A stretch of DNA of 27,443 bases, taken from UHGV virus genome UHGV-1837213. One strand, 5' to 3'. Positions within the stretch are counted from its first letter, which is position 1; the number at the start of each line of letters is the position of its first letter. Made by a program: the position numbers and the translations under genes. Below the pieces are notes generated by a model. The model had not been told where the DNA came from. It worked only from the letters and a program-made list of their open reading frames with translations, and searched no databases. Below are positions 120 through 27,443 of this stretch, one piece after another. Source of the DNA: a virus.

Positions 120-3100
120 CATAAGCTGATCGGCTTTGTCCAGAGCCTTCTGGTATCCGGCTGCCAGTTTCTGTTGCGCTGCCTGTTCCTTCTTGGCCGC
201 ACGCTGCGAGGCGTTAGCTGATCGTTGGGCTGCTTTCTCGGCGGCTGCGGCATCCTGTTCACGAGCTTTAGTCAGTGCAGCAATGGCTGCGGCACGCTCT
301 TCATCGCTCATTTTCTCCAGAGAGCTGGCGCTGGATGCTTTCTGCAAATTAAGCTGCGTCTTGAGTTGTTTAGGCCCAATAATCGGCTTACCTTCGAAGT
401 CCATCATCGGAGTGCCGTCAGGCAAAGTACGTTGATAAGTCGCAGAATCCATCTGGTTTCGCATATATTGCGCCAGCGCCTTCTGAGCAGCTTTATCAGT
501 TGTACCTAACCCAAGAACAGTCCCCTGGTTTGACATTACGCCCTTACCAGTTTTGGCCGCGTTATCTCTCTCGAACTCTGCCTGAGTCAGCTCCTGAGCA
601 ACGGCTTCCAAATGCTCCTGATAACCACGAATACTGCCTTGCAGTTTCTGGATCTGCTCGGTATTTCCATCCTTTTTGGCTTTTTCAAGCTGATCATTAA
701 GAGTCGCAATTTGCTTCTCGGTCGCATTCTTACGAGAAGAAAGTGAATCAACCAGTTTTTGCGCAGGCTCCAGATAGCTTTTGTTTACCGTTTCACGTAA
801 CGGTGCCAATAGCTTGTTCTTTTCGTCATCTGAAAGTGAACCGTCATCATTGATTTTCTGGATCTTATCCAGAGCCTCTTGCCGGGCTTTCACGAATGTT
901 GCCGCGAAAATCTGGTTTTCCGCTCGAATTTTCTCAATCTGAGATTCGGCAGCCTCTTTAGCCAAACGCTTTGCTACAGCGCCGTCACCAAGAGCTATCG
1001 TGCCGGTTATCTTTTGATACTCCTCCTGATTTTTTTTCAGGCGTGCTTCGATGTCAGCCTTCGACTCTTTGTGAGTAATAACACCGGCAGAGTTAGATAC
1101 GTAATTAACACCCTCACCAGTTTTTAATGCTCGTTGATCAGCAAGAATCTGCTTTTCGAGCTTTTCTGCGCGGTCGGCCATTTGTGCACGTTTGGCCGCT
1201 GTCATCGCTTCTGGTATTTTCCTAATCTCGTCAACGACCTTTGAAGTTTCGCTGCGGAGCATGGTCATGTACGTGATTAGGCCAGCAACAGCTACAGTGG
1301 CAACTGTAAATGCTGCCCCTATAGGGTTTGCTGCAATGAACGCCGTTAATCCAGCAAAAGCGCCTTTAAGCCCCGTAATCGCCCCACGGATGGCGAAAAT
1401 AAGAGAGGGGATCGGAGCCAGCCCCATACGTGCCGCACGATTGAATCGAGTTACTGCTGTAGCGCCGAGGTTAAATGGAGTCTGTATGGCGGTCGCCATC
1501 GTGGCAAAGGTGCTAACCATCTGGCTCCCAGCGCCAACTACCCCCATGATCCCTGCTCGCATCAGTTTGAACGCAACCATCGCGGCCACGACCTTACCGA
1601 GATTAATTACCAGCTCTTGGTTCTTTGCTAACCATTGAGCAAGCTGACGCAACCCATCGATTGCCGTTGTTAACCCCGAACCTAAAGAATTGGCAAACGA
1701 AATCCCTTCGGCGCTATTCATGATTGAAGCCAGTTCTTTCATCCCCTTCGATAGAGAATCCAGATATCCGGCCTGACCAACCCGATCAGCAAATAACGTG
1801 AATGACGTCTGAAGTTGCGCCAGCGCACCTGTGTAGGTTTGCATCATGTCTTTCGCTGCGTTCTCATTCTCCGCACGCAGACCAACAAACATCAGAGACA
1901 ACGCCTGTTTTGCCTCAACCGTACCGCTGGCAACGGCTTTAGTCAGTTCCCCCATAGTGATGCCTGCGGCGTCTGCCATTGCCTGCATCGCGTTAGGAAC
2001 GGCTTCACCTAATTGCTGACGTAGCTCTTCCATTGACACAACGCCCTTACCGGACATCTGCTGAACGGCCACAGCCGCACGTTTCAACAGCTCACTATCA
2101 CCACCAAAACGAGCAACGGAGTCCACCAGCGCCTTCAGAGAACCATCGGTTGGATCTAAGCCAGCAGAACGAAACTTCACGAAGGAGTCTGTTAACGCCT
2201 GCATCGCGAACGGCGCATTTTGAGCCATGTCTACGATGTACTTCATATCATCAGCGGCAGCCTGGCCCGGGTTGGACTTCTCCTTATTCAACCCTCGAAG
2301 CATCACCCGCATACGTTCCATTTCGGCCGCAGCTTCAACAATAGGCTTCTGCCACCCAAACATGATGTCAGTAACCGTTCTGGCTGCATCTCCGATCTCG
2401 CCAAGCAGGAAAATGTTGCCACGCAGGCCAGAGAACATACCTCCTTCGTTACTTTTACCGCTATGGCCAGAAGCGCCGCTACGCCGCCCGCTACCACCAT
2501 CACCACTTCCAGATGTACGAACGCGTACCGGCTTGCTAATCAGTTGCTGACGTCCGATAACTTCGTCCATCTGCTCACGAACCTTTTTCAGTCCCTCGGC
2601 AGCCTGACTCGTTGTGACACCCCAATTACTGAGTCGCTTCGTCGTGGTATTAAGGCGCGTATTCATGCCACTCACGGACGCAGAGGCTTCTTTGACCTCC
2701 GTACCAAAGCGGCTTGCGCTTTTGCTTGCATAGGTCGCCCAATCAGAGAAATCATTTAGCTCTGATTGCACTTTACGTAATGACGCGGTGAGTTTATCTA
2801 CTGAAGAAGTTGTCGTATCGACGCGCTCAATCAGGGCTTTAAGACCAGAATTGAGGCTGGTGATGTTGCCACGCATTTTACGCGTAGCATCTGAAGCAAG
2901 CTCAAAACAGGCAGCTACATCCTGTAGTTTATCTGCCGTAGAATCGAGCTTGCTTTCCAGAACGCCAATGATACGGGCGACCGAACCCAAAGAGCGTTCA
3001 AAGGTTTGGATTTTTTGAGCAGGCTTTGTTACCTGCTCACCAAATCGAGTAAGCAGTTTCCCCGCACGATCGATTGACGCTGTAAACTGTTTGTCTTCCA

Positions 3101-19108: not shown

Positions 19109-19573
19109 ATGAAGTCTCCCATACTGTTCACTTTCTGTTCTAAAACTATCATGAAATACTCGCTTCTCCCTCTACTAACGTTACCAGTGTTGATGCTTAC
19201 CGCGTGCCAATCACGCCCAATATCAATCCATGACGCCAAACCAGCACCGCAGGCCAAAGTGTTCAAGTATCAAAGCGCAGCGCCAGCTACGTTGGTGGTA
19301 ATGAGAGACACAGGTTTTGTAGGAGCTGGATGTGATGCTTCCATTTTCATCAACGGCGAAACTGTCGCAAAACTGGCTACAGGCGAAAAAGCGACTTTCC
19401 ATTTAAATGCCGGAGAATTAATTGTGGGTGCATCTCTTGAAGGTGCAGGTTTATGTGCTCTAAACCCCGCTCGTCAAGAGCGAGAAACGACTCTGAAGAA
19501 TGGAGACACAAAAGCGTTCAGGGTGTTCACCAGCAATTCTGGTGACATCGACATTCTGCCAACAACTCTGTGA
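19109..19573 (+). CDS. Putative lipoprotein, 154 aa
   Basis: AGGGAG RBS. Signal peptide with lipobox-like LTAC (Cys as predicted lipidation site). An alternative start at 19151 (MKYSLLPLLTLPVLMLTAC) would give a canonical short lipoprotein signal. Confidence 0.65.
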   Translation: MKSPILFTFCSKTIMKYSLLPLLTLPVLMLTACQSRPISIHDAKPAPQAKVFKYQSAAPATLVVMRDTGFVGAGCDASIFINGETVAKLATGEKATFHLNAGELIVGASLEGAGLCALNPARQERETTLKNGDTKAFRVFTSNSGDIDILPTTL

Positions 19574-19577
19574 TGAC

Positions 19578-20102
19578 ATGACAACCAAAGATATTACCTA
19601 CGGTATCCAAGCTGAACTCTGGCCGCGAGATTACACTAACGTTGAAAAACTACTGATGTTCTGGCGCAGAGAACAAATTCCTGTAAGGGTCACTCTCGAA
19701 GATGGCCAGGCGTTTTGCATGTACGTTTATGGCCTCATGCCATCTCGTAACAAAGTTGACCTTTGCCCAGCCCCTTTTGACAAAGAAAATCGTATAAGGC
19801 TCCCACTTGAACGCATTAGTACAATTGAATCAGGTGTGGTTGACAGTATCGCTCACGATTTCAAAGGTCGACTAACAGTTCACCCTGATTATGTCGATAA
19901 TCGGCCATCACGCCGCGATTTTTTTGCAATTTGCAACCAAGCCTACAAAGCAAACAAATCTATAAGGGTGTACATGGCGGATGGCCGTGAAATTGAGGGG
20001 GTGTCAGCAGGCGCAGATGCTTGTCAGGTTACACTACGTGTCGAGAACGGTAGAAAAATAGTTGTTTTGTTCGATTGGGTTGAACGAATTTTGCCTTTTT
20101 GA
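19578..20102 (+). CDS. Hypothetical protein (ORF track 19500..20102; start probably ATG at 19578)
   Basis: The longer ORF overlaps the lipoprotein gene by 74 nt. The ATG at 19578 follows the lipoprotein stop. Confidence 0.5.
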   Translation: MTTKDITYGIQAELWPRDYTNVEKLLMFWRREQIPVRVTLEDGQAFCMYVYGLMPSRNKVDLCPAPFDKENRIRLPLERISTIESGVVDSIAHDFKGRLTVHPDYVDNRPSRRDFFAICNQAYKANKSIRVYMADGREIEGVSAGADACQVTLRVENGRKIVVLFDWVERILPF

Positions 20103-21396: not shown

Positions 21397-21600
21397 ATGG
21401 TCAGCTATGACAAGATCCGCGCGGAATATCGCGCAAAGTATCGCGCTTATAAACTAGAATTAATCGATGATTTAATCGCGCAACGCGACCAATTAAATTT
21501 TACGTTTTCTGATTTGCTTAACAGCAAGCGAGATTGCAAGCGCAAACGTGAATACTTACGTTTAAGCGCATTAATCGGAAAACTTCAAAATTCTATTTAA
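21397..21600 (+). CDS. Hypothetical small basic protein (ORF track 21352..21600; start probably ATG at 21397)
   Basis: The ATG at 21397 is preceded by AAAGGAG. The longer ORF would read through the hairpin. Confidence 0.5.
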   Translation: MVSYDKIRAEYRAKYRAYKLELIDDLIAQRDQLNFTFSDLLNSKRDCKRKREYLRLSALIGKLQNSI

Positions 21601-21620
21601 TTTTTTTAAGGAGCTTAATC

Positions 21621-21851
21621 ATGTTTGTTCTTATCGCTGGCGTTAACGTCCATAACGAATATTATGTTAATCGCATCGCTGGGATCGCTGGTTACGCTGG
21701 GCGCGCAGTCGAGTTTATCGATGAAACAACGCGTAAAATTGATTTATTGAGCGACCAGGAGCGAAAAAAAGCAGACGTGAACGACGCTGATATATTTTTA
21801 ATGTTAAAAGCGTTTGTAGAAATGGGATTTAAAATCAGTTTACACAAATAA
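21621..21851 (+). CDS. Hypothetical small protein, 76 aa
   Basis: Strong TAAGGAG RBS; followed immediately by a terminator. Confidence 0.6.
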   Translation: MFVLIAGVNVHNEYYVNRIAGIAGYAGRAVEFIDETTRKIDLLSDQERKKADVNDADIFLMLKAFVEMGFKISLHK

Positions 21852-21856
21852 AATCG

Positions 21857-21884
21857 AGCGCCCACTATGGGCGCTTTTTTCGTT
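21857..21884 (+). terminator. Rho-independent terminator (hairpin copy 2 plus T-run)
   Basis: AGCGCCCACTATGGGCGCT followed by TTTTTTCGTTT. Confidence 0.75.
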
Positions 21885-21901
21885 TCCAATACTTCCACAA
21901 T

Positions 21902-21930
21902 AACGCGCCATTGATGGCGCGTTTTTTATT
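21902..21930 (+). terminator. Second tandem terminator hairpin
   Basis: Stem AACGCGCCAT/ATGGCGCGTT followed by TTTTTTATT. Confidence 0.6.
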
Positions 21931-22342
21931 GTCTTTAACTCACTCCAACAACATAAAAATAAGCGCCAAAATAACGCCATAAACGCGCTTTTATATCCTT
22001 ACCAGTACATACCCATTACTTAACACATTAACGCGCTTAAAACGCGTTATATTGCGCTATAGCGTATGGTTAATCATTGGCTTTTAGTCTTGCTATGTGA
22101 TCCGCGTTTATTTGTCGGCGCGGATCGGCATTTTGTTTTGTTCCGTATCCGCTCGCGTATTATGTGCGCGTGATTTTTCACATAATCACACCACTTAATC
22201 ACGTATGTGATTATGCTACGAAAGAAATCTGGATGTCTCAGGCGACGAAAGTCATCATAATTTTCCCCGCTCGCCTGTCCGACAACCGCTGGTTGGATTC
22301 CACCAGCTTCCCGATGTTTTTTTCTACATAAAGGCGAATGCA

Positions 22343-22456
22343 GCCGTTTCCCGAAAAAATCCTGGCCGTTTCCCGTCGGCTCATGAATACGTTCCTCGCC
22401 GTTTCTGAAAATTTCCCTGCGGCAGCTGGTGGCTATAGAGAAAGGGCCGTTTCTGG
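22343..22456 (+). repeat. Iteron-like direct repeats (4 copies of GCCGTTTC(C/T)(C/T)G)
   Basis: Copies start near 22343, 22365, 22398 and 22446, all in the same orientation. Confidence 0.6.
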
Positions 22457-22468
22457 CCCTCTTCTCAG

Positions 22469-22951
22469 TTACACGCCATCAAGGATGTGGATGCGGTTGC
22501 TTGCGTATACATTCAGCATAAAGTTAGCGCAAAACAGTTTCCATGTATCAACGCCAGCGGTATACGTAATGTTTTTGCATTTAATCGCATTGTTGGCGAT
22601 CCGCATCCCCTGCGATACTGCTTCATCGTCGGAAAATTTGAACGACGATTGAGTTTTAATCCAGACAGAAATCTGCGTAGCGAACTCAATCAGCTTGGAC
22701 TGGCAGAATCGCCCGGAGCGCACCGGAAAGACGAACGTTCCGAATCCAGAATTTACCACATATGCTTTCTCAAATACCCGCGAGTAACGACGATTGCCAA
22801 TGATGTCGCGTGCAATAATGCATTTTTCTTGTGCTGACAGTTCTACCGTCTCATTGTCGCGCCATGCACCAAGTACTCGTTTTTCAATGTCAGAGAACGT
22901 TACAGCGATATTGCCATGTGCGGGTGCGTTTACAGTAGCGATAAAATTCAT
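22469..22951 (-). CDS. Hypothetical protein, 160 aa
   Basis: AAGGA RBS 8 nt upstream of the ATG; preceded by the conserved promoter/leader element. Confidence 0.6.
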   Translation of the reverse strand: MNFIATVNAPAHGNIAVTFSDIEKRVLGAWRDNETVELSAQEKCIIARDIIGNRRYSRVFEKAYVVNSGFGTFVFPVRSGRFCQSKLIEFATQISVWIKTQSSFKFSDDEAVSQGMRIANNAIKCKNITYTAGVDTWKLFCANFMLNVYASNRIHILDGV

Positions 22952-23005: not shown

Positions 23006-23124
23006 TTGTACGAATAAGGCGTCAAAGTGGAAAGTTGCGGTAGCCGGACGGGAACAGGTGGGTTTGTCGGTTGCCTGGAGGTAAGAGGTTGGTGTTTTTA
23101 GCCTGCGGGAAACAGGATGGTCAT

Positions 23125-23152
23125 TTAAGGCCACCAGCATTGGTGGCCTTAA
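23125..23152 (-). terminator. Hairpin terminator containing a Chi octamer (minus orientation)
   Basis: TTAAGGCCACCA-GCAT-TGGTGGCCTTAA, 3 nt after the stop of the 93-aa gene; contains CCACCAGC. Confidence 0.5.
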
Positions 23153-23595: not shown

Positions 23596-23623
23596 TTAAG
23601 ACCACCAATGCTGGTGGCCTTAA
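23596..23623 (-). terminator. Hairpin terminator containing a Chi octamer (plus orientation)
   Basis: TTAAGACCACCA-ATGC-TGGTGGCCTTAA. Same stem as the 23125 copy but with the loop inverted; contains GCTGGTGG. Confidence 0.5.
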
Positions 23624-25251: not shown

Positions 25252-25581
25252 TTACGCGAATACCTCAAGAAACTCCTGAACGTCCCAATGCTGGACGAGG
25301 TGAAGATAGACCTTAGAAATCACGTCATTTTCGCTATCGCATGTGAAGTAGTACTTCTGGCTGCGGTTGTATGTGTCCACACAAAATTCGCTCATATCCA
25401 TAAAGTCAGCATCTTCACCCATGTCGCAAATCATCAAAGCAGGTGCATCATCACGAGTCATCAGCTCAAGCACCCACCGCGAATTGATCAGAGTGGAAGA
25501 CCAACCTTCCAGCTCATAGAACTGGTCAAACTCTTTTTGAGTCAATTTCTTGATTTGGTTGATGTCGATATGTGCAAACAT
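25252..25581 (-). CDS. Small strongly acidic protein, 109 aa (ORF track 25252..25602; ATG at 25581)
   Basis: AAGGA RBS 7 nt upstream of the ATG at 25581. About 21 Asp/Glu against 8 Lys/Arg. Shares an RDD...ADFM-like segment with the 93-aa protein. Confidence 0.6.
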   Translation of the reverse strand: MFAHIDINQIKKLTQKEFDQFYELEGWSSTLINSRWVLELMTRDDAPALMICDMGEDADFMDMSEFCVDTYNRSQKYYFTCDSENDVISKVYLHLVQHWDVQEFLEVFA

Positions 25582-25594
25582 AAAGCAATCCTTA

Positions 25595-25626
25595 AACAAC
25601 ATGTTTTCTTGATGGTGTTATTATCG
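25595..25626 (-). promoter_or_regulatory. Conserved promoter/leader element, copy E
   Basis: Minus-sense CGATAATAACACCATCAAGAAAACATGTTGTT. Confidence 0.55.
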
Positions 25627-25944
25627 CAATAACGCACAGGCGAAAAAGGATTTTATTCCGGTGAATGTGGTTTTGGCAGTGAGTTTTCAGGTTCAGTACC
25701 GAGAACACTTTTTACATTATTCTGATTTAGTGGCCGAAGGTGGCTGGTGGGCAGAATAATCATCTCCCCGAAAACCTACTGAAATCGATTGTGACCCGTT
25801 GGCTGTCTGGCACAATTACGCTGTAGCTGGGCATTCAGAGGGAATCCAGCGGTAAGTAAGTTCGCCTGCACGTGAGCGCCTCTCTTCTTCCCGCACATTA
25901 CAGGTGGGTAGCCGCAACTCTCCCTCACGCTATACCGGTACGCC

Positions 25945-26076
25945 GCCGTTCCTGAACCGGCATCGAGCCTTTTCCCGAAACCCACACAGGCAACTCGACC
26001 GTTTCCCTGAAAACCTCCAGCCGTTCCCCGAAGGCAACCCAGCCGTTTCTGTAGCGGGATGCAACCTTTTCCCTGT
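25945..26076 (+). repeat. Iteron-like direct repeats (6 copies) with about 22-bp periodicity
   Basis: Copies of (G)CCGTT(T)CC(C)GAA-like sequence starting near 25945, 25967, 25997, 26020, 26042 and 26065. Confidence 0.6.
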
Positions 26077-26130
26077 ATGGACCGAAGGCTGACCGTAGGG
26101 GTGTTACGGGGGATAAAATCAGGAGTTGAA

Positions 26131-26161
26131 TAAATACGAAAAAGGAGGCGACACCCCTCCT
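26131..26161 (-). terminator. Putative terminator at the end of the skewed ORF-free region
   Basis: Minus-sense AGGAGG-GGTGTCG-CCTCCT followed by TTTTTCGTATTT. Confidence 0.45.
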
Positions 26162-26990
26162 TCCCTCCCCACTTATACATACCTGGCTTCTTCGCTATAC
26201 ATGTTGTGTTTTATCTGTCTCAACCTCTCTATAGGCGTTAATGCTCACTCCTTCCAGAATGTTCTATACGGCGACTATTTCTGTTGGTGAATTGGGCGTG
26301 TTGTTCTCTCTGTCGGTGTAAATGGTTTCGTTCGTTTTGCGGTGGTTCTTCTATGGGGTGTTCTCGTCGTTTTGGTGATTGTTCTTCTCCGTGTATGGAG
26401 TAATGGCAGGTGGGCGATTGCTTTCGTTATTGTGTTTGAGTTGTTTGTCTGGAGTGTGTGAAAGGCTTTTGTAGTTATTCGTGTATTGGGTAATGGCGTT
26501 TCCCGTGATTGTTATGTTTCGTGTCTTTTGGGATTGAGAGAAACCTTGCGGTTACAGGCTTCGTTGGGGTTTCAGCGGTTCAGGTGTTTCTTCGCTGTTT
26601 GGGTAATGGCGTGTCGTGGGTATCGCGCGTATGAATGTTTTCGGATTGCCTGTGAAAGTTAGGTTGGTTGTCCGGTAGCCTGGGGAGAAGAGGTGGGTCT
26701 TTTCGGTAGCCTGCCATAAAGAGGTTGGTTGTTTTGGGGAATGGCATGTGTGTTATTTAGTTGTTTTGTTATGCCTGAAAATAAGTTGTTTATATGGTTG
26801 TGTAACGCAACGGGAACGATTTTGAGCGTGTGTTTTTGTTGGTAGTGTGTTGGGTCGTCTGTGGTGAAAATTGGACGCTGTGGCGCTGTCTGCTGCGTAG
26901 AATTACGGGTATAAGCAGTGATGTGTGAAAACGTCAATTTTTTAGACCAAATCGGATGAAAGCGTTGATGTTTCGTTGATCTGTTATTCA
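26162..26990 (-). ncRNA. Candidate long untranslated transcript or structural DNA element; ORF-free with extreme strand skew (G+T rich on plus, C+A rich on minus)
   Basis: No convincing ORF on either strand. One sampled 60-nt stretch was about three quarters G+T. Bounded by a copy of the conserved element (about 26991-27011) and a terminator-like hairpin. Internal short repeats such as GGGTAATGGCG and CGGTAGCCTG. Transcription is inferred, not shown. Confidence 0.3.
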
Positions 26991-27011
26991 GTTGTTTTCT
27001 TGATTGTATAA
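26991..27011 (-). promoter_or_regulatory. Conserved promoter/leader element, copy G
   Basis: Minus-sense TTATACAATCAAGAAAACAAC at the upstream edge of the skewed region. Confidence 0.4.
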
Positions 27012-27143
27012 ACAACTATAACTTATTGATATTTAAGGATGTGATTGCGGGTATGGAAGGGGAGTAGTGGCGATCAACGGATTCTTATAGAAAAGAATCA
27101 AATTGTGACCGCCATTATCAACGGTTTGAATCTGTTTGCAGAT

Positions 27144-27443
27144 TTACCAGTTCCAGCACTCAAGCCCTTCAACGACCGGCGCACCACAATCAAAATGTAC
27201 AGAGTCAAAGCCTACATCAAGTACTTTCTGAATGTTAGCAATCGCGCCTTCGGATATACCATATCGACGCAAGTCGTCTTTCCAGACATCATCCTGTAAC
27301 CCGGCGTGGACAATACAACCGCCGTCAATTTGCGAAACCCAATCCAGCTCATTGCTTGCGATCATGAATCGGCGAGCATCTTCCTCTGATGTATGAGATG
27401 AGCTGATCAATGCCACCTGGTAGGCTTGGGTAATGTTCAACAT
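27144..27443 (-). CDS. Hypothetical acidic protein, 99 aa; start codon at the last bases of the window
   Basis: ORF with ATG at 27443-27441; its upstream region is outside the window, so the start cannot be verified. Confidence 0.45.
   Translation of the reverse strand: MLNITQAYQVALISSSHTSEEDARRFMIASNELDWVSQIDGGCIVHAGLQDDVWKDDLRRYGISEGAIANIQKVLDVGFDSVHFDCGAPVVEGLECWNW

Follow-up and report, generated by a model that had tools for sequence, protein, structure and literature searches.

Rho loads onto at least 70-80 nt of untranslated, unstructured RNA in which C exceeds G and YC dimers are frequent, and the lambda tR1 terminator and the attenuators in the long leaders of rho, mgtA and corA are familiar Rho-dependent terminators or rut sites. 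Other non-coding regions act as origins that depend on a transcript, such as T4 oriF and oriG, the ColE1 origin with its RNA II, or the lambda ori, or give rise to sponge RNAs, such as CsrB and RsmZ, which bind CsrA, and CrcZ, which binds Hfq. Here we set against these systems a non-coding block at positions 26162-26990 of a 27,443-nt viral stretch, UHGV-1837213 (the whole stretch is called the window below), which is part of an SSU5-type phage-plasmid. We tentatively read the block as an untranslated minus-strand transcription unit whose sequence would have been selected as a Rho-loading barrier, a reading that we regard as possible rather than probable. Like the Rho-dependent terminators, its predicted RNA is untranslated, richer in C than in G, rich in YC dimers and poor in structure, and it lies downstream of transcripts that end without a predicted hairpin-T terminator. 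It differs from them in being about ten times as long as a rut site, in having a promoter-like element of its own, invariant repeated motifs and complementary flanking segments, and in containing more A than C. A full-text literature search returned no description of the block region.

The most conspicuous property of the block is its strand composition. On the plus strand, positions 26162-26990 contain A 0.165, C 0.150, G 0.298 and T 0.387, giving a G+T of 0.685; in 200-nt windows across 26201-27000 this value is 0.66-0.77, against about 0.43-0.62 elsewhere in the 21-27 kb region. The phage Cyrano (108,379 bp) is 97% identical to the window over 25900-27443, and nearly all of its genes run in one direction, that of the window's minus strand. 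Its homologous 700-nt window has a sense-strand G+T of 0.28, whereas the genome mean is 0.499 (sd 0.028), a deviation of 7.8 SD; the block is the single extreme of that genome, the next window having a G+T of 0.411. The extreme G+T skew that an earlier sequence-only reading had proposed for this region is therefore borne out both by windowed composition and by an outlier test on a whole genome. Taken in the minus sense, the skewed body (26179..26907, minus strand) is C/A-rich, G/U-poor and free of open reading frames (ORFs), its GC content is about 0.45-0.47, and its polarity is that of the flanking minus-strand genes and of a promoter/operator element found throughout the genome. Base periodicity within the block amounted to weak signals at lags 12 and 24 only.

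A coding region or pseudogene was considered and rejected, as no conserved ORF, Pfam match or tblastn similarity to neighbouring proteins was found. The only ORF of at least 60 aa that lies wholly inside the block is a 118-aa frame with a TTG start (26659-27015, minus strand), rich in Q, T, N, P and H and annotated in some phage records as CYRAN_103. We attribute this frame to the scarcity of T on the minus strand of the block; neither its frame nor its position is conserved in other lineages, and it has no Pfam match. More broadly, no ORF in the block is conserved across 12 diverged lineages, in which frames and positions differ, and no Pfam family was matched by any ORF of the block region, so the earlier statement that the block holds no credible ORF stands. 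Searching the neighbouring small proteins against the 12 block lineages by tblastn gave no consistent match (lowest E 0.018), and with this result and the Pfam scan no trace was found of a degraded gene, an origin that would have counted against the sequence-only reading. A known RNA family was likewise rejected after scans of Rfam 15, which returned no matches in the window at gathering thresholds and, at permissive thresholds, a sole match within 25550-27200 at E 1.9. No tRNA or tmRNA was found, and these candidates were rejected too.

The block is widely distributed within its family. It is present in 839 plasmid records from Klebsiella, Escherichia, Enterobacter, Salmonella, Citrobacter, Cronobacter and Shigella, in 12 phage records and in 49 IMG/VR contigs, and all related phages carry it. 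The E. coli plasmid CP091393.1 is 100% identical to the window over the queried 951 bases, and the phages Cyrano, PhiR41_1 and CMS-2020a are 94-97% identical over 25900-27443. A search with homologues of the flanking protein p111 found no extension of the block family beyond SSU5-type phage-plasmids. The lineages that carry the block are 47-93% identical to one another, and the sense A+C content downstream of a conserved 5' motif is 0.62-0.72 in all 60 loci read. The earlier proposal's own grounds for refutation thus do not apply, the block being strongly conserved in related genomes and no remnant of a known gene. In the most divergent lineage reached, L066, in which p111 is 51% identical, a block of about 900 nt with an A+C of 0.60-0.69 occupies the syntenic place and is followed by a G-rich stretch. 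A blastn search (word size 7, E 1e-3) found no similarity at all in the L066 block body; skew, length and position are thus retained despite similarity of the body being undetectable by blastn.

These comparisons also address why the composition is kept. Of about 800 body columns, 380 are at least 90% conserved, and these have an A+C of 0.724, against 0.609 in columns less than 70% conserved. Since the conserved columns are more skewed than the variable ones, and mutation bias predicts the reverse, the alignment argues for selection on the composition of the block body, and mutation bias was rejected on the same ground. The substitution spectrum by itself is uninformative on mutation bias; differences between close relatives are mostly transitions (Ts/Tv about 1.6). 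We consider the block a rare case in which strand composition, not sequence, is conserved over about 700 nt. One natural loss is known: the defective Yersinia pestis plasmid pFra/pMT1 lacks the block, with a copy of IS1541 next to the site, and keeps its neighbours, namely a gene for a FljA-like protein, p111 and the adjacent small gene. Because this plasmid has lost the block and is nevertheless stably maintained, the block is dispensable for plasmid maintenance.

As RNA, the minus-sense strand of the block is predicted to stay largely open. A 771-nt minus-sense RNA has a minimum free energy (MFE) of -122.9 kcal/mol (z -1.1; -0.16 kcal/mol per nt), no better than shuffled sequences, and the plus-sense RNA folds worse than its own shuffles. 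In 150-nt windows of the block the minus-sense MFE is -4.4 to -21.9 kcal/mol, against -37.4 +/- 8.5 for the window, and the block accounts for seven of the eight weakest-folding 150-nt windows in the 27 kb as well as for the seven highest C/G ratios. Over the same window size the sense RNA contains 0.27-0.39 C and 0.09-0.19 G; C/G is 2.1-3.8 in 10 of 11 windows (about 650 nt) and 1.4 in the 3'-most one. There are 12.9-16.5 YC dimers per 100 nt in the block, against 9.9 +/- 1.7 elsewhere. No conserved hairpins appear in the consensus structure of the block body, and a structured RNA was rejected as its identity, given no excess folding on either strand, a weak consensus structure and no net covariation term. 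Three features of a rut site, C>G with a high YC density, no stable structure and no translation, are present, and because the block RNA is untranslated, unstructured, C>G and YC-rich, it would be a near-maximal Rho substrate. The sequence-only reading had likened this RNA to a Rho-loading substrate, and in composition and weak folding the block does fit that description best of the whole window; the comparison falls short in that a plain Rho site needs none of the motifs, the flanking complementarity or the iteron array described below, so that the other two candidates of that reading, a DNA element and a long non-coding RNA, keep some weight.

Published expression data come from lysogens. 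In the RNA-seq of LF82(Cyrano lysogen) (PMC9928086, S1 table), CYRAN_103, which covers the block's first 357 nt, does not rise above the floor in any of the ten samples (log2 2.3-4.3), these figures being gene-level counts from lysogens only. CYRAN_102, the gene just upstream on the same strand, reaches 57 normalised units, up to log2 9.2 (PMC9928086), which places it 11-fold to more than 80-fold above CYRAN_103, a difference in gene-level counts to which RNA decay could contribute. No hairpin-T terminator is predicted between CYRAN_102 and CYRAN_103; the sole hairpin there, of 7 bp and A/U-rich, lacks a T-run. The drop is consistent with transcripts that decay rapidly at the block's edge or are terminated there by a factor, and the silence of the block in lysogens fits repression of its own promoter during lysogeny.

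Taken as a Rho-loading barrier, the block would work as follows. Its sequence would be selected so that the RNA, and with it the non-template strand, is C/A-rich, G/U-poor and nearly structure-free over about 700 nt. The barrier would lie with variable cargo upstream and an iteron array and small early genes downstream, and RNA polymerase that had read through from the genes upstream, or had initiated at the operator-bearing promoter of the block itself, would be released within the block unless this was prevented. Transcription of the block in the lytic cycle, Rho as the acting factor and insulation or gating as the selected function are all inferred here, and, purely conjecturally, a factor modulating the barrier might bind the conserved internal motifs. 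Such a barrier accounts for the selected structure-free C>G strand, its polarity, its position at a cargo hot spot and the drop in transcript level.

The upstream edge of the block carries what looks like the start of a transcription unit. A copy of a promoter-proximal or operator element lies at 26986..27011 on the minus strand, with the core AAGAAAACAA and, in most lineages, only half of the palindrome. There are six copies of this element in 21.5-27.4 kb (22973, 23458, 25111, 25595, 26780 and 26986). In Cyrano, whose genome was rebuilt for this search from loci L001 and L061-L063, the full element AAGAAAACAAnTTGTTT directly follows the -10 in at least 13 promoters, 15-45 nt before start codons and always in gene orientation; the genes that it heads include terS, parA, a helicase gene, RNR-beta and small early genes. 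At 26986-27011 no ORF follows it. With its palindromic core, AAGAAAACAAnTTGTTT resembles the operator of a genome-wide regulator, like C1 of P1. The likeness to the P1 C1 operators, which we give for context only, is that the element heads at least 13 transcription units, one of which is the block; it differs in that its sequence is unrelated and in that the palindrome at the block is halved in most lineages. A second operator-like element within the block (26760..26805, minus strand) combines the palindrome AACAAnTTGTT, without mismatch in most lineages, with a AAGAAAACAA-like sequence after it, and L066 has a full internal operator palindrome at another position.

Just inside the promoter-proximal element lies a conserved inverted repeat, GAAA-(A/G)UCAAC ... 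(A/G)UUGAC-GUUUU (26928..26974, minus strand), detected with RNAalifold and 95% paired in 25 sequences. One of its positions is C-G in 17 sequences, U-A in 3 and otherwise in 5; L066 has GUCAAA/UUUGAC, with A-U at the covarying position, and the window's own lineage has two mismatches. Its 3' arm supplies the -35-like TTGACG (26932-26937). Further in, CTTATACC (26908..26915, minus strand), which can also be read as a weak -10 located 17-18 nt after TTGACG, forms the 5' member of a pair of complementary segments whose 3' member, (T)GTATAAG, lies 730 nt away at 26172..26179 (minus strand). CTTATA within the 5' segment is invariant in all lineages, and the two segments pair at 90% over 10 positions, one of which is C-G in 16 sequences, U-A in 6 and U-G in 3, and never unpaired. 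Covariation thus lends modest support to the pairing, modest because few independent events underlie it. We also considered an invertible switch between these 8-10-bp inverted repeats and rejected it, since a chimeric junction query requiring a full-length match found the inverted junction in none of 203 E. coli/Shigella plasmids and the block has the same orientation in 60 of 60 loci. At the downstream edge, a G-rich hairpin followed by a T-run (26139..26165, minus strand) is predicted to resemble an intrinsic terminator. Only the window/Cyrano lineage has it in good form; in the others, GGGGGAU/AUCCCCC pairing is possible in its place. The earlier description of a block bracketed by a promoter element and a minus-strand terminator hairpin is therefore accurate for the window, where both are present (26986-27011 and 26165-26139), whereas the hairpin is convincing in no lineage but the window's own.

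Inside the block, short motifs recur at conserved places. Three tandem repeats of 30-31 nt, called D2, occupy 26645..26729 on the minus strand, with the sense form ACCNACCTC-N7-CAGGCTACCG, of which CAGGCTACCG is invariant across lineages. As the unit GTAGCCTG-N7-GAGGTNGGT, D2 occurs three times at 26645-26729 and three times at 23040-23121, against 0.2 expected; the second triple lies directly upstream of the promoter of the gene 22951-22469, which encodes p111. The word GTAATGGC occurs three times in 26400-26610 and five times in the window, against 0.67 expected. The repeated short motifs reported earlier are thus real and non-random, with the corrections that D2 has three copies rather than two and that only D2, not GGGTAATGGCG, recurs near 23040. 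On the plus strand D2 reads (T/C)CGGTAGCCTG; of the 10 bases specified in the RfaH ops element GGCGGTAGnnTG, it matches 8. We treated this as coincidence and set the candidate aside, as transcription in the minus sense uses the plus strand as template and ops offers nothing to match the second half of D2, which is conserved equally well. On the minus strand D2 contains CCACCUCUU, which resembles the 3' end of 16S rRNA, possibly also by coincidence.

Three GCCATTAC units (ACGCCATTACyCmATAyrCGGAGAAGAAC; 26588-26615, 26475-26502 and 26385-26412, minus strand) and a degenerate fourth (26737-26748, minus strand) make up the other main motif class, and three to five such units stand at conserved positions in most full-length lineages. 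The Cyrano block contains GCCATTMCYC four times, and the rest of that genome a single time, on the opposite strand. The lengths between motifs differ among lineages mostly in steps of about 11-12 nt (78 versus 99-102; 135 versus 147; 61/72/93/104). By eye, L066 contains an operator palindrome, two TCAACG-like words, TTGACA followed after 17 nt by TTATACCC, three CAGGCA about 30 nt apart, TGCCAT units, CGGAGAAGA, a G/A-rich segment and GGGAAACGG repeats.

Beyond the block, a conserved 35-nt segment, CGTATTTATTCAAC...TTTTATCCCCCGTAAC (26101..26138, minus strand), separates it from six direct repeats of the 11-nt sequence C(A/G)GGGAAA(A/C)GG (25946..26075, minus strand), spaced by 22, 22, 22, 31 and 22 nt. 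These iterons lie inside an ORF, 25776-26180 on the minus strand, which is annotated in Cyrano as CYRAN_104 and absent from the RefSeq plasmid records examined; this 134-aa ORF over the first iteron array is probably spurious. Whole iterons have been lost in some lineages, and no RNA structure is conserved across the array region (-9.6 kcal/mol for 337 columns). Most of the C(A/G)GGGAAA(A/C)GG copies contain GGA and as RNA would resemble CsrA sites. The array is unrelated to the RepA iterons (CTCTCTATAGTGGATA), which lie, like RepA itself, 33 kb away. A second array of four copies is found at 22344-22457, and both arrays share a phasing of 22/31-33 nt. Within the 27-kb window, D2 and iteron clusters come together at one other place, where they bracket the p111 gene and its promoter. 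That unit measures 778 bp and the block unit 784 bp, and their interiors are unrelated.

Several of these observations weigh against a Rho-loading barrier, which leaves the length of the block, its own promoter-like element, the complementarity of its flanks and its invariant motifs without explanation. Rho loading requires about 80 nt, the block extends over about 700 nt, and loading needs neither invariant motifs at fixed positions nor compensatory flanking segments nor a separate promoter. The block RNA is also richer in A (39%) than in C (30%). The promoter hexamers are weak or ambiguous, TTGACG being an arm of the inverted repeat and the -10 lacking the T at -7, and the lysogen RNA-seq shows only that the block is silent. 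In several lineages the immediate upstream gene is directed away from the block, and read-through insulation therefore cannot be its sole role. Finally, the length steps of about 11-12 nt hint at helical phasing of sites on DNA.

A second reading is a lytic replication origin or some other cis-acting nucleoprotein hub; it is doubtful, but it would explain the repeat arrays and the iterons and may also explain these length steps. The whole gene-free region of about 1.5 kb (25603-27143), within which the block lies, would then assemble proteins on the D2 triple, the GCCATTAC units, the operator palindromes and the six iterons phased by 22 bp, while initiation would be primed or activated, as at T4 oriF/oriG or in ColE1, by transcripts that run through the block, and one strand would be kept free of hairpins for loading of a helicase or of single-stranded DNA-binding protein (SSB). 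In keeping with such a hub, the phased direct repeats adjoin a conserved, moderately A+T-rich segment, can be lost as whole repeats and show no conserved RNA structure, the distances between motifs shift by 11-12 nt or its multiples, and the D2 and iteron arrays bracket a second unit of nearly the same length. The phage also encodes UvsW, UvsY, a gp32-like SSB, RecA, RNase H, a helicase and a primase, a set that suits R-loop or D-loop initiation; the T4-type UvsW, UvsY, gp32-like and RNase H genes, like the promoter-like element, the non-coding region and the phased iterons, are points of likeness to oriF/oriG and the other origins named at the outset. A lytic-origin role may be compatible with dispensability for plasmid maintenance, and the defective pFra/pMT1, from which the block was lost, still replicates as a plasmid. 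Unlike such origins, however, the block has no A+T-rich unwinding element, there are no DnaA boxes (TTWTNCACA, 0 in 25600-27150), no initiator gene is adjacent, and Cyrano shows no genome-wide skew switch at this position. A C>G minus-sense RNA is the opposite of known R-loop-prone regions, C-rich where ColE1 RNA II is G-rich and not folded like it, and Rho would remove it. An origin also offers no clear reason why a keto/amino skew of 700 bp should survive complete turnover of the sequence. A plasmid origin or incompatibility locus was rejected outright, given the unrelated and distant RepA iterons and the absence of the block from pMT1. Neutral or decaying DNA, in which the skew would have no function and would be either what is left of a gene or repeat array in decay or the product of a mutation bias confined to this place, with deamination acting on a strand frequently exposed as single-stranded DNA, is very improbable. 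The Ts/Tv of close relatives is what weakly constrained DNA would show, and parts of the body have diverged beyond recognition; against this, length, position and composition are kept in all lineages, nearly half of the body columns are highly conserved and the skew is stronger there, transcription-linked deamination would enrich sense G+T, the opposite of what is observed given the promoter polarity, and neither tblastn nor Pfam found a protein remnant.

The block might instead act through its RNA in trans. On this account, which we consider unlikely, a long non-coding RNA of about 0.85 kb would be made on induction. Its ends would be base-paired, its C/A-rich body would be kept single-stranded to present the motifs, and it would titrate a factor that binds single-stranded RNA, be it Rho, another host protein or a FljA-like repressor. 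This account would cover most features of the locus: a promoter-proximal element without an ORF, the 5' inverted repeat, the compensatory 5' and 3' segments, the 3' hairpin, the unstructured body, conserved motifs set in variable but C/A-rich spacers, silence in lysogens and loss from the defective pMT1. It would also give a place to the homologue of FljA (PF03614, E 2.5e-84) that is encoded 6 kb away, and is found in plasmids of non-flagellated Klebsiella and Yersinia pestis. On the other side, the transcript was not observed in lysogen RNA-seq, the covariation amounts to one or two events, and for the window's own lineage the opposite strand gives the better pairing of the 5' repeat. pMT1, moreover, retains the FljA-like gene yet has lost the block, and Rho should terminate such an RNA short of its full length. 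Sponge signatures are absent too. The likeness to CsrB/RsmZ and CrcZ lies in repeated short accessible motifs and perhaps in paired ends; the block differs in having no GGA-in-loop hairpins, no (ARN)n enrichment and no Rfam match and in being much longer, GGA is scarce in it, and the GGA-containing repeats of this locus lie downstream, outside the block. An Hfq-type (ARN)n sponge was rejected, as (ARN)4 coverage equals that of dinucleotide shuffles in four of five lineages. The 5' untranslated region (5'UTR) of fliC is a known kind of FljA target, and a target or decoy for the FljA-like protein that mimics it was rejected as well: the block shares ACCCAATAC and UCAACG/UUGACG with the E. coli fliC 5'UTR, and the local alignment is no better than shuffles (p = 0.52). 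Quite improbable, in our estimate, is the specific version in which the induced RNA of about 0.85 kb would serve as a decoy in trans for Rho or another single-stranded RNA-binding factor, for example the FljA-like repressor, and so bring about read-through or de-repressed translation for lytic growth. The P4 protein Psu is a protein inhibitor of Rho, and such a decoy would be its RNA-based counterpart.

What the locus would teach us depends on which of these readings is right. A Rho-loading barrier would show a phage-plasmid shielding its lytic genes from the transcription of a cargo hot spot, by way of an unusually long and elaborate region of Rho-dependent termination. If the block proved to belong to an origin, the lytic origin of a clinically widespread phage-plasmid family would have been identified, and a decoy RNA would be a new kind of host-takeover RNA. 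Clinical E. coli, Klebsiella, Enterobacter and Salmonella commonly harbour SSU5-type phage-plasmids, and the cargo that these elements carry immediately beside the block includes defence-type genes.

The FljA homologue itself (19500-20102, plus strand; 200 aa) carries, in addition to its PF03614 match, a weak sub-threshold Hfq-like match at residues 146-188, and it has no relative of solved structure. FljA is a post-transcriptional repressor of phase-1 flagellin. Among plasmid records, 341 from non-flagellated Klebsiella and 62 from Yersinia have homologues at about 65-80% identity (about 78% in the two Y. pestis records listed). Because the gene is conserved in the family, including the plasmids of Yersinia and of non-flagellated Klebsiella, it probably serves the phage-plasmid itself and does not act to control host fliC.

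The block has variable accessory genes on one side and, on the other, a cluster of small genes without assigned function, each with its own promoter and many followed by a terminator; beyond these come a divergent group with the UvsW helicase and the FljA-like protein, then ParB-like genes and the terminase. Annotation has largely passed the region by: the RefSeq records of the related plasmids examined leave 1.4-1.9 kb blank at the block, and in most records it is unannotated or covered by spurious ORF calls. The genes upstream of the block vary by lineage and occur in either orientation (right flank, L004, L005, L008, L009, L011, L001, L066, L067); they encode DUF5983 and MetRS, DUF4145, DUF262 (a type IV restriction-like family), a coiled-coil protein and 400-aa hypothetical proteins. 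As the right-flank genes differ between lineages and point either way, the block can be said to border a cargo and defence hot spot. The block region is itself a hot spot of insertion and rearrangement (L012, L047, L021, L065). In L012 a foreign segment that begins with TGTCAACGCCAAGAT... (about 2040-2050, minus strand) is inserted directly after CCCCCGTAAC; it has three GTCCGCT-containing repeats, resembling a transposon end, and L047 carries it too, not at that site but downstream of the iterons. In L021 an IS3-family transposase interrupts the block.

A second gene-free zone, of 870 nt, lies between convergent genes at 21600-22469. In it are two Chi sites and the four-copy iteron array, along with several hairpins, on both strands, that resemble terminators. 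The window is enriched in the E. coli Chi octamer GCTGGTGG, with 9 copies in 27 kb on both strands, against 0.65 expected (for example 23131-23138 on the minus strand and 23610-23617 on the plus strand). A Chi cluster was rejected as the identity of the block, which has 0 copies. Two of the copies sit in the stems of bidirectional terminator hairpins (23125-23152 and 23596-23623), and another, at 25743, lies in a non-coding stretch and is kept in several lineages.

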